From an uncultured Eubacteriales bacterium (GTDB lineage Bacteria > Bacillota > Clostridia > Christensenellales > Aristaeellaceae), in NCBI GenBank assembly GCA_902789365.1, contig CADANQ010000073.1:1-16695 (forward strand): DNA of 16,695 nt. Direction: 5' to 3'. Made by a program: the position numbers and the translations under genes. Shown in pieces: positions 2,424 to 16,695 of this stretch; position 1 is the first letter of the stretch, and every line of letters begins with the position of its first letter. The notes under the pieces are model-generated. The model ran no database searches and had not been told where the DNA came from. It saw only the letters and a list, made by a program, of their open reading frames with translations.

Positions 2424-2458
2424 GGCACGGCGGCTTCCGTATCCGCAAGCCAAGGCCC

Positions 2459-2508
2459 GGGGTCTTCGCGCCGTATGATGCGTGAAAACCCCAGGTCTTT
2501 TCTTTATA
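2459..2508 (+). terminator. Putative intrinsic terminator of the ygjV-like gene.
   Basis: The stem is ggggtcttcgcg / cgtgaaaacccc (10 of 12 bp) with a 10-nt loop, followed by aggtcttttcttt. Confidence 0.45.
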
Positions 2509-2966
2509 ATTCGGTTATGTGCATTTATCGGCACTGCCGTGGCGGCGGCCCGCGGTGCATTCACCCTGGGTTTATCATGGGTCGGCGGCCGCAGAAGGAT
2601 GGGGTAAGCCTTTGTCACGGTGTGGATACCGCAGGCGGACGGAGCGGTCAAAGATTCTTGACGTGGCTGTCTTCCCCGATGGACGTGGTATCCGTCCCCA
2701 TCAATGTACCGCGCGAGGCAGACGTCAGCCTGTGTCCTGCGGAAGACTGGCGGCAGCCCGTATTGCCTTCCCCCTTGGGGGAAGGGAGACCGCGGAGCGG
2801 TGGATGAGGTTCCTCGTCCCGCAGCATGCGGTGAACGTTTCGGATGATGGAAAACCTATGCCCTCTTATCGACAAAAAGGGAAAGACGGCGTGGAACGTG
2901 AGAACCTCATCCGTCTCCTCGCTGACGCTTGGAGCCACTGCCCGGGGCTGCCGCCCGCCCTCCGCT

Positions 2967-2991
2967 GAAAACAGTCCGCCGGACTGTTTTC
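2967..2991. other. Perfect 11-bp inverted repeat with a 3-bp spacer (gaaaacagtcc-gcc-ggactgttttc). It is a candidate bidirectional terminator or operator.
   Basis: Read directly from the sequence. U-runs flank the GC core on both strands. Confidence 0.35.
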
Positions 2992-3395
2992 CGAGCGCTC
3001 CGGGCCCCCCGAGAGGGAAGGCTTACGAAGTCTTCCTTGTCGGTTGAAAGATTCTGTGGCGAGCAAATTATGGAGAAATGCGTAGTAAAACACGACCCAT
3101 GGCAGGCGGCAGCCCGTCATTATAGGTCAATCTTTATTTTTCTGCCAATACACAGAACCGTCCCCTGTTTTTCGCATCGGGAACAACGCCAACCCAGGTT
3201 ACCGCCTCATCACCGATTGCCGCATGCCGAAGCATGGCGGCCCTCGGGCCGCCGCTACATATCGCTTTCCATTCGTTCGCTCGACAATAACTTTTTTTGC
3301 CTGTGCTTCAATGCCAGGGATTCCCACGTCGTTTTATGCGTGCCAATCACGAGCTTTAAATATTTCTTTTTTTAACTTGCCGCCGGGATTTCAGA

Positions 3396-6300
3396 TCAGA
3401 AGATACCTGATTCCAGATTCACCCACAAAGCGGGGCGAACGGCGGTATAGCCATCGTCGACAATGTCGTAGTTGTAGCGCGCACCATAGCTGTTCACATT
3501 GCAGGCGGAAGAAGAGTCCCGCCCCGACGACCGCAACCACCACTTGCAGTTCCCATTGTATGCGTTATATGGTGCTCCCTGGGCAACAGCATATTCCGTC
3601 GGTTTGCATTCCAAGGCACTGTCGCTCTTGAAATAACCCCACGCTTCCGCGTAACTTAGCAGGAAGACCCGGTCTTCCGTATCTTTCCCTCCGCTCGTGT
3701 TCCATCCGCTGTACCCCTGACCTGCACCGTTGTCCACCTTTGTCAGCACGATTGCCGTTTGCTCCCGAGCTGTGAAAGCTTTGTTCAGGAACGTCCCGTT
3801 CAGCCACGTCCGCAGAGTGCAAGTTTCCCACGTCACGCTTGTCCAACCCGTATTATACGGATGACAGTCAAGCGCATATTGGCTGATCAGCAGCGCTTTC
3901 TGTCCGTCCCTCGCAAGCACCAGCCATTCGATCGGCGTGCTATCATTTCCAGACGCCGTCTGCGGATAGGTGCCGAAAGTGACATAATTTCCCAAGCCGA
4001 ATTTCGCGTCACGTTCCGCCGCTGCAGCTACTGCCATAAGATTCTGAGCATTCGCCAGCAGGCTGTCTACGTCCTTGTAACCTTTAATCCCGATAAAGAT
4101 TACAGCGGCTCCGGCATAATCGCCCTTCGACGCCAGATTCTTCGCCTTCAAGTATCGTGTCTCCGTAATCTGCACCGCAGCGTCTGAATAGTTCCCGAGC
4201 GTTGTGAATTCTTCTATCGCCTCCTCATATCTCCCCGCCTGCTGCAGCGCGACCGCGGCCTTGTAATCGCGCTCTTTTATACTGTTCCTGCATACTTCAA
4301 TCTGCGCCGCGGAATCTCCGTATCCGTCCAGCGCTTCAAATGCCGCAATCGCTTCCTCATACTTCCCCGCCTGCTGCAGCGCTATCGCTGCATTGTAATC
4401 ACGCTCTTTGATACTGTTCCTGCATGCTTCAATCTGCACCGCGGAATCTCCGTATCCGTTCAGCGCTTCAAATGCCGCAATCGCTTCCTCGTACTTCCCC
4501 GCCTGCTGTAGCGCTATCGCTGCATTGTAATCACGCTCTTTGATACTGTTTCTGCACGCTTCAATCTGAGCTGCGGAATCACTGTATCCGTTCAGCTCTT
4601 CGAATGCCGTAATCGCTTCCTCGTATCTCCCCGCCTGCTGCAGTGCGACCGCGGCCCTGTAATTGTTGCCGGGAATAATAACCTTTGTAACAAGGATAAT
4701 TGCCGCAATGATCAATACCGGAACCAGAATGGCAAGGATCGTGTCCCGTAACTTTTTGACAGCAGCCGCTTCCTCCGCGCGCCGTTTTTCCTCATTTTCG
4801 GCAGAAAGGCATTCCTCATACCGCTTGTCGGCTTTTTCCCTCAGCTGCTCCACATCGCGGTAGCCGTTAAGTTCCCATTTGGCAAGGGCACTTTTAACGT
4901 TTGACCACTTGCGGCTGTCCTCTCCCGCATTCTTAATCTGCTTCATCACTTCGTTATACTGATAGGACCGAATACTTTCCGCGGATTCAAAACATTCTTT
5001 TGCCTTGGCCTTCGCGTCACGATAAGAGGGGATCGTTTGAAATATCTTTGCCGCATCCTCAAGGATTGCTGGATCGTTCAACCCGCTTCTTTGTTTTTGT
5101 TCGGCGCTGTCATAAACAGCCTTCTGCCTTGCCTGCTCCGCCAAAGCGCGGCACTGCTTCGCGCATTCCGACGCATCTTTATCCCCAACGGAATCAAACA
5201 TTTCCGCGGCCGTTTTGAAACCTTGCTCGGTCACATAACCCGGATCGTTGTTTCGTACTGTCTGTCGGAAAATCTTCTCGTTATGCTCGCTGTTCGCACG
5301 CCGCTTTCCGTCTGCCCGATCACCCTGGGAACGCGCGCAGGTCTCCCTGTATCTTTCAAGCTCCCTGTCAAGTTTTTCCCGGTCCGCTTTCGGGCTGACC
5401 GCCATCTCCATGGCGCAGTCATATGCGTAATCGCGGATCTGCCTGTCCACCCGCTCCTTTGCCTTTGCCGCATACTCTTCATACGTTTTTTTCTGCCCCG
5501 GGTCGGCAAAGCGCAGGGCCTTTTTCCAGTCCGGATCATCATTATACAGGAACGTCGCTTCAGCAAGTTCGCTCTCCCTGCACATACCGAATTTAACGCA
5601 GGCCTTGGCGGCATAGGCAGGAGCGTATTCCGGGTCGATATCCAGCACCCGGTCCAGGTATTCGGAAGCGCTGCGGAAGTCCCCGTCCTCCATGAACAGC
5701 TGCGCCCGCTTCATCAGGCTGGCGACGCCCGGCGCTGCGATGTCGGCGGACGCCGCCGGCGCGGCCTGCCGCGCAGTCACGGAGCTCCCGGCCTTTTTAT
5801 CCGCATCCAGCACCTTTTTGACGCCGCGGATCAGATCCTGCATGAAGCCGATCTTCCCCATGTCCTGGCTCTGCAGGCTGCTCAGCTCGTCCGGCAGGTC
5901 GTAGGGGTCCATGCCCCGGTAACAGGGGATCAGCAGACGCCCGCGGTCGTTCGCCATCAGCTTCAGGTAGCGGCTCCATTCGTTCCTTACCCACACGGCG
6001 CTGAAATATTCCGGTTTGCTCCCGATGACCACCATCACTTTAGCGCTGTTCAGCGCCGCGAAGATATAGGGCTCGTATTCCTGCCCCAGCTTGTCCTCCA
6101 GGGTGATGCGGCTGAAGAACACCTTGTAGCCCTGCTCCGTCAGGCCGTAGTAAACGTCCTGCGCCCACTGGCTGTCGTGGGTGCGCTGCCCGTTTTCGTC
6201 GGTCTCCTTATAACAGATAAAGACGTCGTAGGGCTTTTCGTTTTGCGATATGGCCAGGATGCCCCTTTGGATCTCCGCGATGCGGGCGCCCTCCTCACGG

Positions 6301-6695
6301 TAGATCCGGCGGCTTTCATCGTCCGGCGCGTATTCCACCGCGGCCTTGTAATCCTCGTCCGAAAGGATGGAGGTCAGCTGCAGCCGGTGGCAGGTGGGCA
6401 CCCGTTTCCCGGTGGCAGGATCCTCCACATATTCGATGCCATACCGGCTGATGACCACGCCCCAGTGGGCCTCGGCGTCGGTATCGTCCTGCTCCAGGAT
6501 CTTTTCGTACGCCGCGGCCGCCTTGTCGAACTCCCCCTGCCGCCGGAAATGGTTGGCCCGGTTATAGCGGTTCAGCTTGCCCTCGTCCTCAGCCTTCGGA
6601 ATGGTGGAGACGCTGCCGCAGTATTCGCAGGTGCCGTAAGTGGCGCCGGGAATGAAATCAATGTCTCCGCCGCACATCTTGCATTTGATGATCAT
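3396..6695 (-). CDS. 1099-aa single-pass membrane protein. Reading N to C: zinc ribbon, TIR domain, coiled coil, TM helix, four TPR-like 44-aa repeats, then a C-terminal extracellular domain of the DUF6273 type.
   Basis: A GGAGG RBS lies 5 nt before the ATG at 6695. The N-terminus has CxxC...CxxC at aa 5-26. Residues 154-250 (KPYDVFICYKETD...KVMVVIGS...AVWVRNEWSRYL) match TIR hallmarks, and Glu239 in WVRNE aligns with the catalytic Glu of NADase TIRs. The TM helix ILAILVPVLIIAAIILVTKVII spans aa 654-675. The repeats NAAIALQQAGKYEEAIAAFEALNGYGDSA.QIEACRNSIKERDY occur four times at aa 676-850. The C-terminal 200 aa (FGTYPQ...IEWLVLARDGQKALLISQYALDCHPYNTGWTSVTWETCTLRTWLN...) match the clostridial DUF6273-like family. 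Confidence 0.85.
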   Translation of the reverse strand: MIIKCKMCGGDIDFIPGATYGTCEYCGSVSTIPKAEDEGKLNRYNRANHFRRQGEFDKAAAAYEKILEQDDTDAEAHWGVVISRYGIEYVEDPATGKRVPTCHRLQLTSILSDEDYKAAVEYAPDDESRRIYREEGARIAEIQRGILAISQNEKPYDVFICYKETDENGQRTHDSQWAQDVYYGLTEQGYKVFFSRITLEDKLGQEYEPYIFAALNSAKVMVVIGSKPEYFSAVWVRNEWSRYLKLMANDRGRLLIPCYRGMDPYDLPDELSSLQSQDMGKIGFMQDLIRGVKKVLDADKKAGSSVTARQAAPAASADIAAPGVASLMKRAQLFMEDGDFRSASEYLDRVLDIDPEYAPAYAAKACVKFGMCRESELAEATFLYNDDPDWKKALRFADPGQKKTYEEYAAKAKERVDRQIRDYAYDCAMEMAVSPKADREKLDRELERYRETCARSQGDRADGKRRANSEHNEKIFRQTVRNNDPGYVTEQGFKTAAEMFDSVGDKDASECAKQCRALAEQARQKAVYDSAEQKQRSGLNDPAILEDAAKIFQTIPSYRDAKAKAKECFESAESIRSYQYNEVMKQIKNAGEDSRKWSNVKSALAKWELNGYRDVEQLREKADKRYEECLSAENEEKRRAEEAAAVKKLRDTILAILVPVLIIAAIILVTKVIIPGNNYRAAVALQQAGRYEEAITAFEELNGYSDSAAQIEACRNSIKERDYNAAIALQQAGKYEEAIAAFEALNGYGDSAVQIEACRNSIKERDYNAAIALQQAGKYEEAIAAFEALDGYGDSAAQIEVCRNSIKERDYKAAVALQQAGRYEEAIEEFTTLGNYSDAAVQITETRYLKAKNLASKGDYAGAAVIFIGIKGYKDVDSLLANAQNLMAVAAAAERDAKFGLGNYVTFGTYPQTASGNDSTPIEWLVLARDGQKALLISQYALDCHPYNTGWTSVTWETCTLRTWLNGTFLNKAFTAREQTAIVLTKVDNGAGQGYSGWNTSGGKDTEDRVFLLSYAEAWGYFKSDSALECKPTEYAVAQGAPYNAYNGNCKWWLRSSGRDSSSACNVNSYGARYNYDIVDDGYTAVRPALWVNLESGIF
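4233..4680 (-). repeat. 132-bp in-frame tandem repeat, about 3.4 copies (units start at 4233, 4365, 4497 and 4629), encoding the TPR-like 44-aa repeats.
   Basis: The exact 132-bp period is read from the recurring ccccgcctgctgcagcgc motif. The central copies are more than 90% identical at the DNA level. Confidence 0.8.
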
Positions 6696-6735
6696 CGCAA
6701 TTGCCTCCGTTTTATCAAATATCCTTTGTCACAGG

Positions 6736-7377
6736 TCATTTTCCGGACTTCGCAAGCGCCTTCCGCTCTTCCAGCATGCGGAAGGCCTTTTGAATATTGG
6801 CCGCGTCGGCATAGCTCGAAAGGGTCTCCAGCATATCGGCAATCCGGCTGTCCATGGGGGTGGGCGTGGGATCCGCGTACCGGATCTCCTCCGCCAGCTT
6901 TTTGATTTCCGGATGGTTCGTGGCAGCCGCAATGGCCGCGGCCCGGGTACGGATGGCCTTCCAGGGGCCGGTTTTATCCTCCGGAGCGGCTTCAGACCGG
7001 CGAACGGCTTCCCTCGCCGCGTCCTTCACCGTAAGGCAGATTGCCGCGGCGGCGAATACCGCCAGCTCGGCGGCAATTGCCGCCCAAACGGGGCAGAAGG
7101 AGGCAATGCCCATGATGACCGCCCCAACGATCAGCTGAACGATTACAAAGATATACCCCACCCGAAAAATGGGCCAGCCCAGCAGCTTGCTTTCAAGCGT
7201 CCGTTCCCTGCGGAAGGCGCGGAAAAAGGCGGCGGCGCACAGGCCGAACATCGCCGCGGTGCATCCCGCGCCGATCCACCATGCCGCCGTACGGTCAAAG
7301 GGAATCAGAATCATCAGAGCGATAACGAGTACCAGGGCCACGGACCAGACGATCCATGCGTGTTTGGTGAGCTTCAC
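6736..7377 (-). CDS. Small membrane protein (213 aa) with four predicted TM helices and a ~90-aa helical cytoplasmic tail.
   Basis: The GTG start at 7377 is preceded by an AAGGGGGAA RBS. It lies 4 nt after the upstream gene's TAA, indicating translational coupling. There are four hydrophobic stretches. Confidence 0.7.
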   Translation of the reverse strand: MKLTKHAWIVWSVALVLVIALMILIPFDRTAAWWIGAGCTAAMFGLCAAAFFRAFRRERTLESKLLGWPIFRVGYIFVIVQLIVGAVIMGIASFCPVWAAIAAELAVFAAAAICLTVKDAAREAVRRSEAAPEDKTGPWKAIRTRAAAIAAATNHPEIKKLAEEIRYADPTPTPMDSRIADMLETLSSYADAANIQKAFRMLEERKALAKSGK

Positions 7378-7380
7378 TTT

Positions 7381-9177
7381 TTATTCCCCCTTCTTCTTTC
7401 CGCAGTCCGGGCAGAATTTGCTGGTGATTCCCGTGCGTCCGCAGGAACAGTCCCAGGTGTCCGGTTCCGGCTTTTTCATGCCGCACTCGGGACAGAATCT
7501 GCTGGTGATGCCCGCGCGTCCGCAGCCGGGGCAGGTCCAGCCCAATTGGTGCTGAGGCCTTTTGGCCCCGCAGTCGGGGCAGAACCTGCTGGCAATGCCC
7601 TTCGCGCCGCAGGCGCAGTCCCATGTATCCGTGGGAATGGCCCCGCCGATGCCGGCGGCCGCCTGTGTAACCGGGGTGATGGCTTCCTTTGCCATGCCGA
7701 TCACGCTGCCCATGGTGCCGAGGCCCACGCCCAATTGCATCATGTCCCCGGCAAGGCCCGTTGCGCCCCCCGCGCCGCCGTTCTTCATGGCCTCCAGGCC
7801 CACCTGGCGCGCGGTTTCCTGCTGGTAGGTGTAGCCCTTCATGCGCATTTCCTGGGCCTCCGCCTCGGCCTGCATGCGGTATACGTCCGCCTGGGCCTGG
7901 CCGGAAATACGCGCGGCCTCGGCCTCGCCCTGAGCGCCGATCACCTTCATGCGGGCCGCGGTCTGGGCCTCCACTGCCTTGCGCTCGAAGGCTGCTTCGG
8001 CCTCCGCCTTGCGGATTTCCTCCTCCCGGGTGCGCAGGTACATGTCCGCGTGCTGCTGCTTGACACGGCGGAAATTGGGGTCGTCGTCGGGGGTGACGAT
8101 GTTGGCCACATAGAATTCCGGCATCTCCAGGCCGTATTCCTTCAGCTCCGGATTGATGGCTTCCCTCAGGGCCAGGCTGATGCTTTCCACATGCTCGTCC
8201 AATTCCAGCACGTTGAAGCGGTTGGCCTTGATGATCTTCGCCAGGCTGCCCTTCACCTTGGCGGCAACCATGGTGCGGAAATAGCCCGAATCCAGGCTGG
8301 CGGAAGCCGTAACGGTGACGCCGCCGGCCTGAGCGGAAACGGAGGCGCTTTCGCTGCGGAACAGGTCGTCCCGGCTGAGATTGCCGGTGGTGCCCACCAG
8401 CCTGATCAGAAGCTTGCGCGCGTCGGTCACCCGCAGGTTAAAGGATCCGGACGCGCCAAGCTCCACGTGCAGCCCGGTGGCCGGGTCAAACAAGCCCACC
8501 CGGCTGGGGGTGCCCCATTTGATGCCCATCTGGGTGGTCAGGTTGACGAAATATACCTCCGCGTGGAAGGGCTGCCCCTGCACGGGAAGGCGGTACAGCT
8601 GTTCCATTTTGGGCAGGATGCCCGTTTCCAGGGTGTATCTGCCGGGACCGAAGGAATCCAGCGCCTCGCCGTTGCGGAAAAAGACGGCCTCCTGGCTTTC
8701 GTGAACGATCAGCTGGCTGCCCGTCACGAAGTCCGTCAGGGGATGTTTCCACACAAAGGTGCTGTTGTCCCCCTCAAAGCTGATGACCGACGGAATGCCG
8801 GCATCCCGCATTTCGGCCTTTTTGATCTCCTGCTGCACGTCGCATTCAGCGTCGCACATGGGGCAGGCAATGGTATCCGCCGCCTTGTCCGCCTGCAGGC
8901 GGCACCCGCAGGTGGGGCAGCGGAAATGCACCAGGTTGATATAGGTCTCATCCGATATCAGGTTAGCCTTGCATACGGGGCATTTGGCGTTTCTCCCCTC
9001 CGCCTGGTCATACACCACATGGTTGCCGCAGGACGGACAGTCCATGGCCGCCATCCGGTCGGTTTTGACGTTGATGATGTTGCCGCAGGAGCAGCGGATA
9101 TGCTTGCTGGCGAAAAAACCCGTGCTTGCCTGGGCGTAGTTGTGGCAGGCCGGGCACGCGATGATAAACTTGCTCAT
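7381..9177 (-). CDS. SPFH/band-7 domain protein (Band_7_1/YdjI-like, COG4260-type) flanked by three N-terminal and three C-terminal zinc ribbons.
   Basis: A GGAGGGA RBS lies 6 nt before the ATG. Six CxxC pairs occur in the first 115 aa. The core FVWKHPLTDFVTGSQLIVHESQEAVFFRNGEALDSFGPGRYTLETG...PFHAEVYFVN is typical of PF13421-type SPFH domains. There is an Ala/Glu-rich coiled coil and a Gly-rich linker. The C-terminus carries three copies of W(D/T)CxCG...FCP(D/E)CG. Confidence 0.85.
   Translation of the reverse strand: MSKFIIACPACHNYAQASTGFFASKHIRCSCGNIINVKTDRMAAMDCPSCGNHVVYDQAEGRNAKCPVCKANLISDETYINLVHFRCPTCGCRLQADKAADTIACPMCDAECDVQQEIKKAEMRDAGIPSVISFEGDNSTFVWKHPLTDFVTGSQLIVHESQEAVFFRNGEALDSFGPGRYTLETGILPKMEQLYRLPVQGQPFHAEVYFVNLTTQMGIKWGTPSRVGLFDPATGLHVELGASGSFNLRVTDARKLLIRLVGTTGNLSRDDLFRSESASVSAQAGGVTVTASASLDSGYFRTMVAAKVKGSLAKIIKANRFNVLELDEHVESISLALREAINPELKEYGLEMPEFYVANIVTPDDDPNFRRVKQQHADMYLRTREEEIRKAEAEAAFERKAVEAQTAARMKVIGAQGEAEAARISGQAQADVYRMQAEAEAQEMRMKGYTYQQETARQVGLEAMKNGGAGGATGLAGDMMQLGVGLGTMGSVIGMAKEAITPVTQAAAGIGGAIPTDTWDCACGAKGIASRFCPDCGAKRPQHQLGWTCPGCGRAGITSRFCPECGMKKPEPDTWDCSCGRTGITSKFCPDCGKKKGE
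7390..7625 (-). repeat. Approximately 78-bp tandem repeat, three copies (~75% identical), encoding the C-terminal zinc-ribbon triplet.
   Basis: The unit ccgcagtccgggcagaatttgctggtgattcccgtgcgtccgcagg recurs three times with substitutions. Confidence 0.7.
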
Positions 9178-9287: not shown

Positions 9288-9316
9288 ATTTTATCCTATG
9301 AAAGGGTTGTTTTCAA
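9288..9316 (-). promoter_or_regulatory. Putative sigma-A promoter TTGAAA-N17-TAAAAT for the SPFH-TM-TIR operon.
   Basis: The -35 is the RC of 9311-9316 and the -10 is the RC of 9288-9293. This leaves a ~110-nt leader before the ATG at 9177. Confidence 0.45.
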
Positions 9317-9564
9317 TGATTTCCAAACATTTTATGTCGAAACGGCGGGCGGCAGCCCGTTGTATCTTCTCATTTGACGGCCCGGAGCGACCGATAAACA
9401 GGCTGTTGACTGTTTTCGGCACAAGGTGTGCGGCAGCCCGAGGCGCTTTATCCGTACGGGGTCTGAGGCTCCGGAAAATAAGTCCGGCGGGCTGTTGGGA
9501 GGCGGCGGATATCACCTTTTCCGGGCACCCGCATCCCGCGGCATATCCCCGTCCCGGAATCCCG

Positions 9565-9669: not shown

Positions 9670-11586
9670 GTGGACGGGAAAATTTCAGCGGCGGACCTCA
9701 AATATCTGCGTCTCCTGGGGGAGCAGTACCCCACCATTGAAGCGCTGTGTGCGGAAATCACCCGCATCAGCGCCAAACTGAGCCTTCCAAAGGGCACCGA
9801 GCATTTCATGAGCGACATCCACGGTGAATATGAAGCTTTCTGCCACATCATGAACAACTGCTCCGGCGTGGTCCGGGAAAAAGTGAACCTTTGGCTCGGT
9901 GACCTGTCCGTCCGTGAGGCGGATGAACTGTGCACGCTGATCTATTATCCCGCAGCCATCCTCAAGCAGCGTCACCAGAAGGGCGAGATCCTCCCGGAAT
10001 GGTACAAACGTCAGACGGAACACCTGATCCGCCTTTGCAGGCTGCTTTCATCCAAATATTCCCGGGAAAAGGTCCGCCGCTTCATGCCGGACGGCCTTGC
10101 TTTTCTGCTGGACGAGCTGATGCACTACCAGAACGACGAAACCAACGAGGAAAGCGAGCAGGAAGGCAACCGCCGCCGCTATCACGACGCCATCATCGAC
10201 ACCCTGATTTCCACCCGCTCCATCGACAGCCTGATCGAAGCGCTGACGGAGATGATCAAAAAGCTTTCGGTGGACCGGCTTCATGTGGTGGGCGATATTT
10301 ATGACCGCGGTCCCCGTGCCGACAGCATCATGGATATCCTGATGACCCATCATTCCGTGGACATCGAATGGGGCAACCACGACATTCTCTGGATGGGCGC
10401 GGCGTCAGGAAGCGAGTGCTGCATCGCGGGTGTCCTGCGCAACTCCATTTCCTACGGCAACATGGAGATTCTGGAGCGCGGATACGGCATCCCCCTGAGA
10501 GAACTGACCCTTTACGCCGAAAAGCGCTACCCCGACCTGAAGCCGGATCAGGCCATGGTGCAGGCGGTCAACGTGATGATGTTCAAGCTGGAAGGACAGC
10601 TGATCAAAAGGAACCCGGAATTTGAAATGGAGGACCGCCTGCTGCTGGACAAAATCGACCCGGAGCGGCGGACGGCGGAAATCGACGGGGAGGTCTGGCC
10701 GATTAAGCCCGTTCCCCTGCCAACCGTCGATTTCAGCGATCCTTACGCCCTGACGAACGAGGAATCCCAGGTCATGGCCGGGCTGAAGCGGGCCTTCACC
10801 CACAGCCTGCGGCTGCGCGAGCACATCGCTTTCCTTTACCGGCGGGGATGGATGTACCGGGCCTTCAACGGCAACCTGCTGTTCCACGGCTGCGTTCCGC
10901 TGAACGCGGACGGAACGTTCCTCAAAAAAAAGCTGGACGGAAAGGAACTGAGCGGCAAGGCCCTGATGGATTACGCGGACCGCGTCGCCCGCCGTGCCTT
11001 TTACAACGGGGACCGGGCGGCGCTGGATTTCATGTGGTACCTGTGGTGCGGCACGGATTCGCCGGTATGCGGACGCCGGGTCAAGACCTTCGCCAGGGCT
11101 TTTATTCCCGACGAACGCGCGTGGCAGGAGCCCCGCAATCCTTATTACGAATGGTATAATTCCGAAAGCAAATGCCGGGAAATCCTGGCGGAATTCGGCC
11201 TGACAGAGGAGACGTCCTGCATTGTCAACGGCCATACGCCCATCCGGGTGACTCACGGGGAAAGCCCCCTGAAGGCCGGCGGCAAGCTGGTGGTAATCGA
11301 CGGCGGTTTCTGCCGGGCTTACCAGAAAACCACCGGTATTGCCGGGTACACCCTGATATCCAACAGCCACGGGATGCGGCTGATGTCCCACCAGCCCTTC
11401 ACATCCCTGAGGGACGCCCGGGAAACCGGGCGCGATATCCATTCCCAGTCCTTCGAATTCAAGACCTTCGCCCAAAGGAAATACGTCGCCGACACCGACC
11501 AGGGCCGGGCGCTGACGGAGCGCATGCGCGACCTGATGCGGCTGCTTGAGGCCTGCCGGAGCGGCGTAATCAACCTTCAGAGATGA
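9670..11586 (+). CDS. fbp: Fructose-1,6-bisphosphatase class III (Bacillus Fbp type).
   Basis: The GTG start at 9670 follows an AGGAGGA RBS 8 nt upstream. The 638-aa product is collinear with B. subtilis Fbp: PKGTEHFMSDIHGEYEAF, HVVGDIYDRGP, WGNHDILWMGA, GHTPI, VIDGGF, GIAGYTL. Confidence 0.95.
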   Translation: MDGKISAADLKYLRLLGEQYPTIEALCAEITRISAKLSLPKGTEHFMSDIHGEYEAFCHIMNNCSGVVREKVNLWLGDLSVREADELCTLIYYPAAILKQRHQKGEILPEWYKRQTEHLIRLCRLLSSKYSREKVRRFMPDGLAFLLDELMHYQNDETNEESEQEGNRRRYHDAIIDTLISTRSIDSLIEALTEMIKKLSVDRLHVVGDIYDRGPRADSIMDILMTHHSVDIEWGNHDILWMGAASGSECCIAGVLRNSISYGNMEILERGYGIPLRELTLYAEKRYPDLKPDQAMVQAVNVMMFKLEGQLIKRNPEFEMEDRLLLDKIDPERRTAEIDGEVWPIKPVPLPTVDFSDPYALTNEESQVMAGLKRAFTHSLRLREHIAFLYRRGWMYRAFNGNLLFHGCVPLNADGTFLKKKLDGKELSGKALMDYADRVARRAFYNGDRAALDFMWYLWCGTDSPVCGRRVKTFARAFIPDERAWQEPRNPYYEWYNSESKCREILAEFGLTEETSCIVNGHTPIRVTHGESPLKAGGKLVVIDGGFCRAYQKTTGIAGYTLISNSHGMRLMSHQPFTSLRDARETGRDIHSQSFEFKTFAQRKYVADTDQGRALTERMRDLMRLLEACRSGVINLQR

Positions 11587-11616: not shown

Positions 11617-11677
11617 CCTTTCCCCGGCACATTTCCCTTGCCGGTGTCCTGACAATACAGCGCATCAAATCCAAAAC

Positions 11678-11761
11678 TTCACTCTTCACTCTCCACTCTT
11701 CACTCTCCGCTCTCAACTCTCCACTCTTCACTCTCCACTCTCCGCTCTCAACTCTCAACTC
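11678..11761. repeat. Heptanucleotide microsatellite with 12 tandem units of TYCRCTC (ttcactc, tccactc, tccgctc, tcaactc). A 6-unit higher-order repeat is also present.
   Basis: Read directly from the sequence. It overlaps the last four codons and the 3' UTR of the ADP-ribosylglycohydrolase gene. Confidence 0.85.
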
Positions 11762-12545
11762 TTTTCTTAAGCCTTTCCGCAACGGCGCGCATGTCCTCCG
11801 GCAGCCGGGCACGGCATTCGGCCTCCAGTTCTTTCGGCACCCCGTAAAAGGCCTCGGCCATGGAGCCCGCGATGCAGGTCAGGGTGTCGCAGTCGCCGCC
11901 GAGGGACACGGCGGTGCGGATCACATCCTCGAAGTCCGTCCCCTCAAGGAAAGCGGTGATCGCCTCGGGCACGGTCTTTTGGCATGTCTCTACGTGGTGA
12001 TAGGTCGGGCGGATCTGGTCGCAGGTACGGCTCAGGTCATAACCGAAAGCCGCGGTGATATATTCCCGAATCCGCTCCTTTGACGCGCCTGTCCGGGCCA
12101 GGAAGACGGCGGCAGCCGTCGCCTGAGCGCCTTTGATGCCCTCGGGATGGTTGTGGGTCACCTCGGCGGTCAGTTTCGCCGCGTGCAGGGTTTCTTCCAG
12201 GGTATCGTACAGCCATCCGGCGGAGCTGACGCGCATGGCCGAGCCGTTACCGAAGCTCCCGTACGGGGCGGGGTTGCCGCTCATCAGCCATCTGTAAAAC
12301 ATTCCGCCGTACCCGGCGTCGGGATAGCGTCGTCCCCATTTGCGCATGGATTTGATCAGGGCGGCGCGAATTTCGTCGTCGGTCCCGCCCATGCTGTCCA
12401 TCAGCGCTTCCGCCACGGCCACCGACATCACCGAATCGTCGGTAAACACGCTCCGCTTGCCGAAAAGCGGAAAATCCCTGGTTTTATTGCCCATGTCAAA
12501 TTCATAGGGCGCGCCGATCATGTCTCCAAGCAAAGCTCCGTACAT
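11748..12545 (-). CDS. ADP-ribosylglycohydrolase family protein (DraG/ARH-like).
   Basis: An AGGAGG RBS lies 8 nt before the ATG. Family motifs are present: GALLGDMIGAPYEF, GNGSAMRVSSAGW, and LGGDCDTLTCIAGSMAEAFYG (the Mg-binding Asp/Thr cluster). Confidence 0.85.
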   Translation of the reverse strand: MYGALLGDMIGAPYEFDMGNKTRDFPLFGKRSVFTDDSVMSVAVAEALMDSMGGTDDEIRAALIKSMRKWGRRYPDAGYGGMFYRWLMSGNPAPYGSFGNGSAMRVSSAGWLYDTLEETLHAAKLTAEVTHNHPEGIKGAQATAAAVFLARTGASKERIREYITAAFGYDLSRTCDQIRPTYHHVETCQKTVPEAITAFLEGTDFEDVIRTAVSLGGDCDTLTCIAGSMAEAFYGVPKELEAECRARLPEDMRAVAERLKKRVES

Positions 12546-12728: not shown

Positions 12729-13550
12729 ATGGTTATACGAATTTCCGACGACTTTGACCTTGAGAAAATCGAAACCAGCGGCCAGTGCTTCCGATGGACG
12801 CGAACGGAAGCGGACACCTGGCGCGTCCTCAGCGGGGAATCCTGCCTGTATATCTCATCCCTGGGGAACGGCGATTATGCCCTCGACTGCGGCGAGGACG
12901 AATTCGACAGCCGATGGAAGGACTATTTTGACCTGCGGGAAAGCTACGCCTCCATCCGCGCGCGAATCGATCCCGCAAAGGACCCCTTCCTCCACGCCGC
13001 GGCGGAGCATGGCAGAGGCATCCGCATCCTGCGTCAGGACCCTTGGGAAACGCTGGTATCCTTCATCATATCCCAGAACCGCAATATCCCGGCCATCCGG
13101 CGCTCGGTGGAAAAGCTGTGCACCCTGTGCGGCGAAAAAAAGACCGATTCCCGGGGCATCGAATACCATGCGTTTCCCTCCCCCGTTTCCGTCGCCGCTC
13201 TTACATTGGAGGACCTTTCCCCCTGCAGGCTCGGCTACCGTGACAGATACGTCCTGCGGGCGGCGAAGGACGCGGCGGCGGGTTTATTGGACCTTGAAGC
13301 AATGCGGGACATGCCCTGCGCCGACGCCGTAAAGGAGCTTGAAAAACTGTACGGGGTCGGTAACAAGGTTGCCTGCTGCGCCGCGCTTTTCGGCCTGCAC
13401 CGTCTGGACGCCTTTCCCCGGGACGTGTGGATCAACCGCGCCCTGAAGGACGAATACCCGGATGGCTGGCCCTATGAAAAATACAGCCCTTACAACGGGG
13501 TGTACCAGCAGTATATATTCGCGTATTACCGCGCGTTGAAAGGCAGATGA
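12729..13550 (+). CDS. ogg: 8-oxoguanine DNA glycosylase / AP lyase (Ogg, HhH-GPD superfamily).
   Basis: The internal ATG at 12729 has an AAGGGG RBS. The N-terminal DFDLEKIETSGQCFRW motif and the HhH-GPD motif LYGVGNKVACCAALFGLHRLDAFPRDVW are both present. The longer track ORF has a junk-like N-terminus. Confidence 0.8.
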   Translation: MVIRISDDFDLEKIETSGQCFRWTRTEADTWRVLSGESCLYISSLGNGDYALDCGEDEFDSRWKDYFDLRESYASIRARIDPAKDPFLHAAAEHGRGIRILRQDPWETLVSFIISQNRNIPAIRRSVEKLCTLCGEKKTDSRGIEYHAFPSPVSVAALTLEDLSPCRLGYRDRYVLRAAKDAAAGLLDLEAMRDMPCADAVKELEKLYGVGNKVACCAALFGLHRLDAFPRDVWINRALKDEYPDGWPYEKYSPYNGVYQQYIFAYYRALKGR

Positions 13551-13598
13551 GCTTCCGCGCTCGGACATTCGCAAATACGTCATAAAGGAGATCGATCC

Positions 13599-14171
13599 AT
13601 GGATAATATCGTTGAAGCCGCCAGGGAATATATCGCCGGACTGTTCCGCGGGAATGCCGGAGGGCACGACGCAGCCCACACCCTGCGGGTATACCACAGC
13701 GCGATTCTGATCGCGGAAAAGGAAAAATCCGGCGATCCCGAAACCGTCGCCCTCGCGGCCCTTCTCCACGACGCCGACGACCATAAGCTGTTCCATACGG
13801 AAAACAACCGAAACGCCCGGTCCTTCCTGGCATCCCACGGCGTGGACGCCGAAAAAACCGAGCGCATCATCGCGGCCGTGAACTCCGTGTCCTTCAGCCG
13901 GAACCGCGGAAAGAGGCCTTACACCATTGAGGGAAAAATTGTGCAGGACGCGGACCGCCTGGACGCCATCGGCGCCGTTGGCATCGCGCGTACCTTCGCC
14001 TACGGCGGGGAGCACGGCCGCGGCCCGGACGATTCCATCGCCCATTTCCATGAAAAGCTGCTTCTTTTGAAGGACGAAATGAACACGGACACCGCGAAGG
14101 CCATGGCCGAGGAACGGCACGCCTTCATGCTTGCCTTCCTGAAGGAGTACGCCCGGGAAACAGGCGGATAA
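13599..14171 (+). CDS. HD-domain phosphohydrolase.
   Basis: An AAGGAG RBS lies 9 nt before the ATG. HD motifs are present: GHDAAHTLRV...LLHDADD...QDADRLDAIG. It lies 48 nt after ogg and is probably co-transcribed with it. Confidence 0.85.
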   Translation: MDNIVEAAREYIAGLFRGNAGGHDAAHTLRVYHSAILIAEKEKSGDPETVALAALLHDADDHKLFHTENNRNARSFLASHGVDAEKTERIIAAVNSVSFSRNRGKRPYTIEGKIVQDADRLDAIGAVGIARTFAYGGEHGRGPDDSIAHFHEKLLLLKDEMNTDTAKAMAEERHAFMLAFLKEYARETGG

Positions 14172-14665: not shown

Positions 14666-15814
14666 TCACTTGACAGCAAAGCCGTTTTCGGCGGCGTACG
14701 CCGCGGCGGCGGATCCCTCGCCGCAGCTGATGGTGAACCTGGGAATCGGCACGAACTCACCGTCTTTATAATCATAGCCGAAAGCCTGTTCCCCGATCGT
14801 TTTTACACTGTCCGGGATGGCGGCCGAGGTGATCCGCGAGCAGCCGTTAAAAGCAAAACTATCGATGAATGCAACAGTATCCGGTATGTCAAGCTTCCCG
14901 GTGAAGCCGGAGCACATGCTGAACGCGCCCCAGCCGATGCGGGTCACGCCGGAAGGGATCACAAGCTTCCCGGTGAAGCCACGGCAGAGATAGAACGCGT
15001 CGCCTTCTATTTTTTTGAGGCCTGAAGGAAGCCGGAGCTCCTCGGTGAGGTATACGCAGCATTGAAAAGCATACTCCCCGATCTCGGTCACGCTGTCCGG
15101 GAAGGTGATGCTGCCCCTCAGCCCGTCGCAGTTTTCGAATGCCGATTTTGCAATCCTCGTCACGCCGTCGGGGATGACGTAATCGTTCATCGTTTTCCCC
15201 CCAGGGGCTGCCAGCAGCACCGTTCCGTCGGCGGTAAACAGGATACCTTTTACCGTTTTGTAGTTTTCGTTCCCTTTGGAAACTGTAAACAGGGTCAAAC
15301 CTGTGCATCCGCCGAACGCCCCTTCCCCGATGTATGTGACCCCGGCGGGGATTGTGACCTTCCCCTTCAGGCCGATACAGATTCGGAACGCGTTCTCCCC
15401 GATCTCACGGAGGGATTCCGGCAGCTTGAGCGACCCCGTAAGACACATACACCAGCAGAACGCGCCTTCGGAAATGACTTCCAAAGAATCGGGAAGCGCC
15501 AGTTCCCCGGAAAATTGGCAGTTGAAGAAAGCGGAGTCGCCGATCCGGACGATACCTTCCGGAATCGTCAGCTTCCCCGACAGGTCCTCACGATCATAGA
15601 ACGCCATATCGCCGATGCGCGTTACACTGTATCCGTCCACCTCGGCAGGTATGGTCATATCTGCGCCCGTACCTGTGTAACCCGTGATCTCCGCGGTTCC
15701 GTCCTCCAGGAGAACATATTCAAAAGCGCCGCAGGTGCGCTTTTCCGGCGAAAGCGCCGAAGCAAAGGCCGGAAGCAGCGCCAATGCCAGCAGCAGAGCA
15801 AACAGTTTTCTCAT
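14666..15814 (-). CDS. Secreted BspA-type leucine-rich-repeat (LRR_5) protein.
   Basis: A GGAGGG RBS is present. The signal peptide is MRKLFALLLALALLPAFASA. There are about 12 repeats of IPxxVtxIGxxAFxxCxxLtgxLxLP and a BspA-type C-terminal cap. Confidence 0.85.
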   Translation of the reverse strand: MRKLFALLLALALLPAFASALSPEKRTCGAFEYVLLEDGTAEITGYTGTGADMTIPAEVDGYSVTRIGDMAFYDREDLSGKLTIPEGIVRIGDSAFFNCQFSGELALPDSLEVISEGAFCWCMCLTGSLKLPESLREIGENAFRICIGLKGKVTIPAGVTYIGEGAFGGCTGLTLFTVSKGNENYKTVKGILFTADGTVLLAAPGGKTMNDYVIPDGVTRIAKSAFENCDGLRGSITFPDSVTEIGEYAFQCCVYLTEELRLPSGLKKIEGDAFYLCRGFTGKLVIPSGVTRIGWGAFSMCSGFTGKLDIPDTVAFIDSFAFNGCSRITSAAIPDSVKTIGEQAFGYDYKDGEFVPIPRFTISCGEGSAAAAYAAENGFAVK

Positions 15815-16525: not shown

Positions 16526-16695
16526 CGTATCTGTTCAGTCCTGCGGACAGTTTAGATACCGCGGGGGGTACCCGTACCCCCCGCGAACCCCCCGGACGAA
16601 GAGGGGAGTCCGGGGAAGGGAAACCCCTTCCCCGAGTCCTGAGCCTCGCCGGCGGCGCTTACTTTCCTGCGTCCAAGCGGCACCGCCGGCCGGGT
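16526..16695 (+). repeat. Left part of a third MITE-like element copy. It runs off the window's right edge.
   Basis: 16526-16620 is about 90% identical to 1327-1420, with the same left TIR cgtatctgttcagtcc and an identical H2 palindrome ccgcggggggtacccgtaccccccgcg. H3 differs by one G-to-A change that preserves pairing as a G·U wobble. Homology with the element's right-hand module resumes at aagcgg (16676), at the expected offset of ~150 bp. Confidence 0.55.

Follow-up and report, generated by a model that had tools for sequence, protein, structure and literature searches.

What does a membrane-spanning TIR protein do in one gene cluster with an SPFH protein and a small membrane protein? The question is raised by a DNA stretch of 16,695 nucleotides (nt) from an uncultured Eubacteriales bacterium (contig CADANQ010000073.1 of assembly GCA_902789365.1; hereafter "the window"), which encodes these three proteins between positions 3396 and 9177. 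In ENA the window is the metagenome contig k141_1155639 of ERZ27280466. An earlier note, made from the sequence alone, had placed the genes in one operon and suggested that a stress-sensing membrane scaffold feeds a TIR effector. We compared the cluster with its relatives and with known systems. With a probability of about one half, the three proteins of the operon form a membrane surveillance module in gut Clostridia, in which a TIR protein predicted to sense outside the cell acts in conflict together with an SPFH scaffold.

Anatomy of the three proteins

All three open reading frames (ORFs) are present in series on the minus strand, as the note had described. Their features, in order of transcription, are:

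9288-9316, minus strand: sigma-70-like promoter match, TTGAAA-17-TAAAAT; 10/12 consensus positions, a consensus match only
7381-9177, minus strand: SPFH (Band_7_1) protein, 598 amino acids (aa); Pfam Band_7_1, 128.6 bits
8842-9156, minus strand: three N-terminal Cys4 zinc-ribbon-like motifs of the SPFH protein (aa 8-112); CxxC pairs in the translation
7978-8778, minus strand: SPFH core (aa ~134-400); Band_7_1 match, invariant columns in the alignment of partners
7390-7632, minus strand: three C-terminal zinc-ribbon repeats of the SPFH protein, W-x-C-x-C-G...F-C-P-x-C-G (aa 516-596)
6736-7377, minus strand: 213-aa membrane protein, GTG start; four predicted transmembrane (TM) helices (aa 2-129) and a C-terminal helical domain
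3396-6695, minus strand: 1099-aa type-II single-pass receptor-like TIR protein
6246-6695, minus strand: its N-terminal zinc ribbon (aa 1-34) and TPR-containing domain (aa 35-150), cytoplasmic
5811-6233, minus strand: its TIR domain (aa 155-295) with the catalytic-position Glu239; TIR_2, 48.5 bits (cut-off 28)
4791-5729, minus strand: its alpha-helical TPR-like region (aa 323-635), cytoplasmic; AlphaFold confidence (pLDDT) ~90, all-helical
4671-4742, minus strand: its single TM helix (aa 652-675), N-in/C-out; hydropathy 3.01
4011-4670, minus strand: its extracellular stalk, four 44-aa TPR-like repeats
3399-3998, minus strand: its extracellular DUF6273 C-type-lectin-like head; Pfam DUF6273, 96.6 bits at aa 933-1093
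3423-3542, minus strand: variable-region-like segment in the head, WWLRSSG...(27 aa)...VRPALW; homologous to the variable regions of diversity-generating retroelements (DGRs) in relatives

Judged by its predicted topology, the large protein is a type-II single-pass receptor with the lectin-like head outside the cell and the zinc ribbon, TPR and TIR domains inside it. It has one TM helix, and the N-terminal side of that helix is the side richer in Lys plus Arg in 82/82 single-pass paralogues (6.4 versus 1.8). Under the positive-inside rule, aa 1-635 are therefore cytoplasmic, and the 44-aa repeats and DUF6273 domain lie outside. The TIR domain is the most conserved region of the protein (mean entropy 0.24 bits). 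The N-terminal domain is nearly invariant (0.38-0.40 bits), with all four cysteines of its zinc ribbon kept in 124/124 sequences and matches to TPR_1 and TPR_2 at aa 44-72. In TIR domains that cleave nicotinamide adenine dinucleotide (NAD+), the glutamate at the WxxxE position is the catalytic residue. Glu239, which the earlier note had singled out for mutation, aligns with the corresponding glutamates of flax L6 (WCLMEL), TLR (WCQYEL) and Brucella TcpB. An alignment of 122 relatives, drawn from about 80 species, has it in every sequence (122/122). The PDB matches to the L6 and TLR domains are weak and were used only to place this residue. The TIR domain thus looks catalytically competent, and would be expected to cleave NAD+ here as well. 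TPR solenoids dominated a Foldseek search with the model of the whole protein, and were the only matches of its alpha-helical region. A polymorphic-toxin reading, with the TIR domain as a delivered toxin, was rejected, as the domain is N-terminal and cytoplasmic and the protein has no signal peptide.

Outside the membrane, the stalk is also visible as a DNA repeat (4198-4663, period 132 nt, 81-89% identity), and the number of repeats varies between homologues by insertion or deletion of whole repeats. The DUF6273 head, which the note had not mentioned, belongs to a family described as a C-type-lectin-like DGR target domain of gut phages in which the variable region (VR) is C-terminal (PMC10743442, PMC11792537, bioRxiv 10.1101/2024.10.15.618418). 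Among 89 ectodomains of the family, 50 are DUF6273 and 19 are RCC1-like propellers; the others include BspA-type leucine-rich repeats (LRRs), RHS repeats, lipocalin-like and InlK-like domains. LRR_5, for instance, forms the ectodomain of two TIR paralogues in other loci. On this comparison the ectodomain appears as a sensor-type, fast-evolving and swappable module.

The SPFH protein contains no hydrophobic segment and hence no TM helix. It has more than 7000 close homologues; a PDB sequence search gave nothing specific. Its core is followed by a Glu/Ala-rich helical segment and then by a Gly-rich one, and the C-terminal ribbons can also be seen as a DNA repeat family at 7384-7612. Alignment of the SPFH partners from different loci showed that the N-terminal ribbons are confined to one subfamily, and that the constant part consists, in most partners, of the core and one to three C-terminal ribbons. 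Treble-clef zinc ribbons had been claimed for both the SPFH and the TIR protein. The Cys4 motifs are there, but the Pfam DZR match on the ribbons stays below its threshold (19.5, cut-off 27.3). In three loci (L027, L044 and L063), the 3' end of the SPFH gene encodes a short SHOCT-like helix, MKEAGxLSDEEF, in place of the C-terminal zinc ribbons.

The 213-aa protein belongs to a small orphan family with 298 homologues, all annotated as hypothetical. It has no match in Pfam, NCBIfam or PADLOC. The motif EEIRYADPxPT is conserved in its predicted cytoplasmic helical domain, and the RYADPxPT part of it is invariant. Its AlphaFold model (pLDDT 71) is all-helical and lacks an OB fold; a fold search returned generic helical bundles only, with no specific fold. 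There is also no NfeD match in Pfam, as might have been looked for in an SPFH-NfeD pair.

The three genes are closely spaced, and their order is that of a real, operon-like unit. The SPFH stop codon (TAA, 7383-7381) is followed after 3 nt, rather than the 4 nt previously given, by the GTG (7377-7375) of the membrane protein gene. The TGA of the latter (6738-6736) lies 40 nt before the ATG of the TIR gene at 6695, the same value as before. GGAGG-like Shine-Dalgarno sequences precede all three starts by 7-10 nt. The shared promoter proposed at 9288-9316 is rightly placed, in a divergent intergenic region of 490 nt and some 110 nt before the first ATG. The match alone is weak evidence, since 7 promoter-like matches occur in the region where shuffled sequence gives 3.2 +/- 1.7. 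Terminator-like matches number 12, with 8.0 +/- 3.2 expected from shuffled sequence. The minus-strand candidates inside the genes are short and weak and not above shuffled frequency, in keeping with the claim that the operon has no internal terminator. An Rfam search of the window gave no match.

Conservation of the cluster and diversification of the head

We scanned one genome per GTDB species, which gave at least 568 matching stretches, and kept the best 80 loci, selected by similarity of the TIR protein. Gene maps of these loci were drawn from our own crude ORF calling and hidden Markov models. An SPFH gene was counted if it was on the same strand and within 3 kb of a TIR gene, and loci with at least 3 kb on both sides were classed as fully flanked. 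The TIR protein has more than 8000 relatives in the database, many of them full-length at 50-70% identity. Nearly all of the best 80 loci come from Clostridia (Oscillospiraceae, Lachnospiraceae, Christensenellales, Acutalibacteraceae, Ruminococcus, Lacrimispora and others). An SPFH gene accompanies the TIR gene or genes in 29 of the 34 fully flanked loci and in 58 of 78 loci overall. The gene for the four-TM protein almost always lies directly 3' of the SPFH gene (at least 53 loci). A look-up in the reverse direction, starting from SPFH homologues, found the order SPFH-TM-(HEPN)-TIR at 4/4 places. Co-conservation of the trio, the check that the earlier note had called for, is thus confirmed from both sides. 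Loci differ in the number of tandem TIR paralogues, which is one in 50 loci, two in 18, three in 8, four in 1 and five in 1; the SPFH-TM pair is usually present once despite this variation. The flanks of the window share no synteny and no genes with those of 90 other loci, which suggests that the cluster moves as a unit or sits in variable regions of the genome. Viral sequence contributed 3 matches among 2.9 million contigs, all of them at contig ends and all with an adjoining SPFH-TM pair. On this count a phage origin of the cluster was rejected.

Some loci carry further genes within the cluster. An inserted SIR2_2 gene was found only in L002, L010 and L033 (26.2 and 25.7 bits, cut-off 24.5), and an inserted HEPN or HEPN_RiboL-PSP gene in L088 to L090 (HEPN_RiboL-PSP, 52.9 bits). 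An RHH_1 gene leads the cluster in about 15 loci. Domains of the SIR2 and HEPN kinds are typical of the effectors that act in bacterial conflict.

A direct link between the receptor head and DGRs was found in six of the related loci, where a template repeat (TR), located between genes for Avd and a reverse transcriptase (RT), has its counterpart in the 3' end of the TIR gene. The Avd-TR-RT cassette lies directly downstream of the TIR gene in L002, L022, L025, L034 and L042; L054 has lost the RT. The proportion of TR/VR mismatches that fall at TR adenines is:

L034: 21/21
L025: 24/26
L042: 18/20
L054: 18/21
L022: 13/16
L002: 14/17

This pattern is the defining signature of a DGR. It is matched by the variability of the proteins: the entropy of the segment enclosed by the invariant WWLRSxG and VRPALW is 2.12 bits in 50 homologues, as against 0.81 bits in the remainder of the head. 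High entropy is found at the positions with AAY codons in the TRs, and the interleaved A, V and G residues are fixed. In some lineages, then, a DGR rewrites the ligand-binding tip of the receptor and generates hypervariable specificity; this is shown for these relatives and not for the window copy. The VR-like segment of the latter has NNY-rich codons and conserved flanks.

The closest relative on a long contig, L002 (67% identity), has the order RHH - SPFH - TM - SIR2_2 - TIR/DUF6273 - TIR/DUF6273 - Avd - TR - RT. The 3' parts of its two tandem TIR/DUF6273 paralogues (10550-11178 and 16077-16705) are 99-100% identical, variable regions included, which could reflect a recent duplication or gene conversion, or else the rewriting of the two VRs by one and the same cDNA. 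At the site in L054 where an RT would be expected, after Avd and the TR, there are repeats of 200-250 nt that have further copies in the locus, with 84-92% identity (13273-13750 versus 17101-17352 and 7294-7494); the RT there appears to have been replaced or split by a mobile element.

Genomic neighbourhood and repeats

Recombinase genes, among them a serine recombinase, and mobilisation genes adjoin the cluster in L086 and L088. L088 and L089 carry the same SPFH-TM-HEPN-TIR cluster, in each case with the same small gene for a resolvase beside it. The place of the housekeeping genes of L089 is taken in L088 by a block that includes genes for a large serine recombinase, RhuM and TnpV, and the upstream sequence shared by the two loci ends at this block. 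The comparison shows that this neighbourhood is a site of mobile-element traffic.

In the window itself, imperfect inverted repeats with 72-78% complementarity and the motif GGCGGCAGCCCG (2940-3008 with 9408-9496, and 2749-2788 with 9348-9387) bracket the three-gene operon at a distance of about 6.4 kb. They could be repetitive extragenic palindromic (REP)-like elements or the worn ends of a mobile unit. A GC-rich hairpin without a T-run lies at ~3230-3255, in the gene-free interval 3' of the TIR gene. Two further families of intergenic repeats, about 100 nt long and 90-91% identical, occur at 7-109 and 1474-1576 and at 1327-1425 and 16526-16624. The second of these families contains two internal palindromes, GTATCTGTTC...GAACAGATAC and GCGGGGGGTAC...GTACCCCCCGC. 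Both look like REP-like or terminator-type elements of the source genome. The window also contains, both on the minus strand, a gene for a BspA-type surface protein with LRR_5 (14666-15814) and an ORF of 388 aa (136-1302) whose function is unknown and which is flanked by the repeat elements.

An ADP-ribosylglycohydrolase gene (11748-12545, minus strand) lies 2.5 kb from the TIR operon, a position suggestive of ADP-ribose signalling. It was rejected as a partner, as it is absent from the other 90 loci and its proximity is probably coincidental. Between the stop codon of a class III fructose-1,6-bisphosphatase (FBPase) gene and the 3' end of the ADP-ribosylglycohydrolase gene begins a tandem array of a CACTCT-rich 14-nt unit, in at least 6 copies (11658-11769), which extends about 20 nt into the latter gene.

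A proposed surveillance module and its alternatives

How might such a module work? We propose that a foreign surface ligand, most likely a phage particle or receptor-binding protein and possibly the surface of another cell, would bind the head and cause receptors to cluster, so that their TIR domains are brought together. TIR domains with a catalytic glutamate become active NAD+-cleaving or signal-producing enzymes on oligomerisation. Activation here would deplete NAD+ or yield a nucleotide signal, and the latter might arrest the cell or, in some loci, switch on the optional SIR2_2 or HEPN partners. The SPFH protein with its Band_7_1 domain and zinc ribbons, together with the four-TM protein, would be the constant partner, most likely a membrane-attached scaffold or microdomain that either restrains the receptors in an inactive state or aids their assembly. 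The earlier note had assigned sensing to the SPFH scaffold, as a detector of envelope stress or phage injection. The anatomy points elsewhere, to the TIR protein's own DUF6273 ectodomain, which is DGR-variable in relatives.

Several observations weigh against a surveillance module. Five of the 34 fully flanked TIR genes have no SPFH neighbour, and 34 of 126 TIR paralogues have no TM segment, which precludes sensing on the outside. In the AlphaFold model the helical regions and the head are confident; confidence is low in the TIR domain (pLDDT 44-66). PADLOC models find no match in the three proteins. The genes flanking the cluster in the window are housekeeping in character (class III FBPase, OGG, an HD protein, ADP-ribosylglycohydrolase, a BspA-like LRR protein and a YgjV-like protein). 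The 130 flanking ORFs at 23 other loci are also mostly housekeeping, with scattered MzaA, PDC-S34, mads and DRT genes, a tally set against no background. Enrichment in defence islands is not demonstrated, and a defence-island context, which the note had named as a second check, is not consistent across these flanks: they are mostly housekeeping genes with sporadic defence or mobile genes. Finally, a global survey of DGRs found cellular DGR targets to be mostly membrane-anchored binding proteins, usually read as adhesins (PMC8144416).

The window copy adds points of its own to this side. There is no TR, Avd or RT anywhere in its 16.7 kb. The sequence 3396-3545 has no second copy in the window, so there is no cognate TR there. 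Searches of the window with six Avd and six RT sequences (tblastn) gave nothing better than E = 0.05, and the ~970 nt 3' of the TIR gene (2424-3395) contain no called gene and no remnant of Avd, RT or TR. In addition, its VR-like segment exceeds the standard length of the family by one codon. Given this difference and the lack of a DGR, the window copy may be a receptor of fixed specificity; its VR may also be the target, in trans, of a DGR elsewhere in the genome, or a frozen former target. A possible GC-rich IMH-like element at the 3' end of the VR is CGCCGTTCGCCCCGC, which is also how the L022 TR ends at its 3' side; as the same bases encode the invariant VRPA, constraint on the protein explains their retention equally well. 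Strain variants of the window VR were sought in JGI metagenomes with its exact flanks, and there was no match.

One alternative is a surface adhesin or ligand receptor without an immune role, an explanation that we consider unlikely. The head would bind host glycans, mucus or partner cells, and the cytoplasmic TIR, TPR and zinc-ribbon domains would be no more than a protein-protein platform for anchoring or signalling, which the SPFH scaffold organises in the membrane. The usual interpretation of membrane-anchored cellular DGR targets as adhesion factors (PMC8144416) would then apply here too, and the gut and rumen habitat of these Clostridia, the housekeeping flanks and the BspA-type LRR and InlK-like domains among the ectodomains are all in its favour. 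A passive anchor, however, would not be expected to place its strongest constraint on the whole TIR domain and its catalytic-position glutamate. The SIR2_2 and HEPN_RiboL-PSP genes inserted in the cluster at several loci also argue for conflict, and an arms race accounts better than adhesion does for the arrays of paralogues whose heads have been swapped.

The division of labour might instead resemble that of Thoeris, with the TIR proteins as sensors that make a nucleotide signal and the SPFH and four-TM proteins as the effector that damages or seals the membrane. The cluster shares with Thoeris a catalytic glutamate in the TIR domain and, in a few loci, a SIR2-family gene, and a locus with one SPFH-TM pair has one to five TIR paralogues, often several, much as several ThsB genes occur with one ThsA. 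The conserved cytoplasmic domain of the four-TM protein, with its invariant RYADPxPT, also speaks for this reading. Unlike in Thoeris, the TIR proteins here are predicted membrane receptors with ectodomains, and their partner is an SPFH and four-TM pair rather than a SIR2/SLOG or Macro protein. The window operon, with only its SPFH, four-TM and TIR genes, contains no ThsA effector. Neither ThsA nor ThsB models gave a PADLOC match; NCBIfam ThcB4 reached 16.6 bits against a cut-off of 220, and only generic TIR_2 matches were obtained. No SLOG, Macro, SAVED or CARF domain was detected in the SPFH or the TM protein, the fold search with the latter offered only its generic bundles, and some TIR genes (5/34) lack the SPFH-TM pair. 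We regard a split of this kind as quite doubtful.

The analogy drawn in the note was to the phage-shock module of Bacillus subtilis, and it leads to a reading in which damage to the membrane, such as that caused by injection of phage DNA, is sensed by the SPFH and TM proteins, which then switch on the TIR protein. Band_7_1 is indeed the family of B. subtilis YdjI, which with YdjG and YdjH links PspA to the membrane (bioRxiv 10.1101/2021.02.15.431232), and the domain match in the window is clear (128.6 bits). In both cases a Band_7_1 protein is encoded with one or more membrane proteins, and zinc ribbons are present, as on YdjG. Only for Band_7_1, though, does the analogy hold. The ribbons here are on the SPFH protein itself, the four-TM orphan partner looks unrelated and matches no family, and a TIR protein is linked. 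None of the three operon genes encodes a PspA (PspA/IM30) domain, and the neighbours are the FBPase and YgjV-like genes. Sensing by the scaffold would also leave unexplained a large, swappable and sometimes DGR-diversified ectodomain, and we think it improbable. That the three genes are chance neighbours on one contig is refuted by the co-occurrence counts, as several families of Clostridia have the genes in this order, between unrelated flanks and with proteins that are 33-75% identical.

If the surveillance module is as we propose, its nearest published parallels are the DGR-diversified antigen-sensor conflict systems of multicellular bacteria (Kaur et al. 2020, PMC7159879; Dore et al. 2024, PMC10907252). 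DGR targets containing TIR have been noted in cyanobacteria and Thiohalocapsa, within STAND or MoxR-vWA systems (Wu et al. 2018, PMC5758913; PMC7517822; PMC7159879; PMC10907252). The global DGR survey (PMC8144416) makes no reference to TIR. As in those systems, a VR with the C-type-lectin fold is fused to an effector-type domain, which can be TIR, and relatives have an adjoining Avd-TR-RT cassette with adenine-specific TR/VR mismatches. The published systems rest on STAND NTPases or on MoxR-vWA ternary modules, are found in cyanobacteria and proteobacteria, and their targets are mostly predicted to be cytoplasmic, with few periplasmic or secreted. Here, in contrast, the protein spans the membrane with its variable head outside, the partners are SPFH and four-TM proteins, the organisms are gut Clostridia and the window has no DGR; Pfam finds no STAND or MoxR NTPase domain in the three proteins. 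The head itself is the same DUF6273 domain with C-terminal VR that is found in DGR targets of phages, the tentaclins and Mtd-like receptor-binding proteins (PMC10743442, PMC11792537). Those are virion proteins, whereas here the domain is the predicted ectodomain of a cellular TIR membrane protein.

The note had called the architecture unfamiliar among described defence systems, and this agrees with the lack of PADLOC matches, with NCBIfam results that were sub-threshold noise only, and with a full-text literature search of incomplete coverage, in which no paper turned up that describes a TIR receptor in the membrane together with an SPFH protein. What appears distinctive, as far as the sequences indicate, is the joining of extracellular sensing and a dedicated SPFH scaffold in a TIR-based, partly DGR-diversified conflict sensor.

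To our knowledge, the bacterial defence systems characterised so far detect infection almost without exception from within the cell. A more far-reaching and tentative possibility is that the cluster represents a family of outside-in innate immune receptors, which would recognise invaders before or at adsorption by a head that a DGR rediversifies in some lineages, and would cluster under an SPFH/flotillin-like raft. By analogy, and no less tentatively, such a family might be considered a prokaryotic counterpart of the Toll-like receptor with an antibody-like variable tip. The overall logic is shared with animal Toll-like receptors: ligand binding outside the cell, a single TM helix and a TIR domain in the cytoplasm, and a few paralogues even have LRR ectodomains. 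Unlike Toll-like receptors, these proteins carry the TIR domain at the N-terminus, in type-II orientation, and homology is limited to the TIR domain (E ~0.04 to a TLR TIR), so that the resemblance is one of analogy and not of membership.

The receptor family is widespread in gut and rumen Clostridia. If its ectodomains are coupled to TIR activity as proposed, this would open the question of outside-in immune signalling in bacteria. It would also bear on the purpose of cellular DGRs in the gut microbiome, and on the job of SPFH/flotillin-like proteins within a defined signalling complex. The DUF6273 head with its DGR would, moreover, be a natural scaffold for evolving binders with a built-in cytoplasmic read-out.

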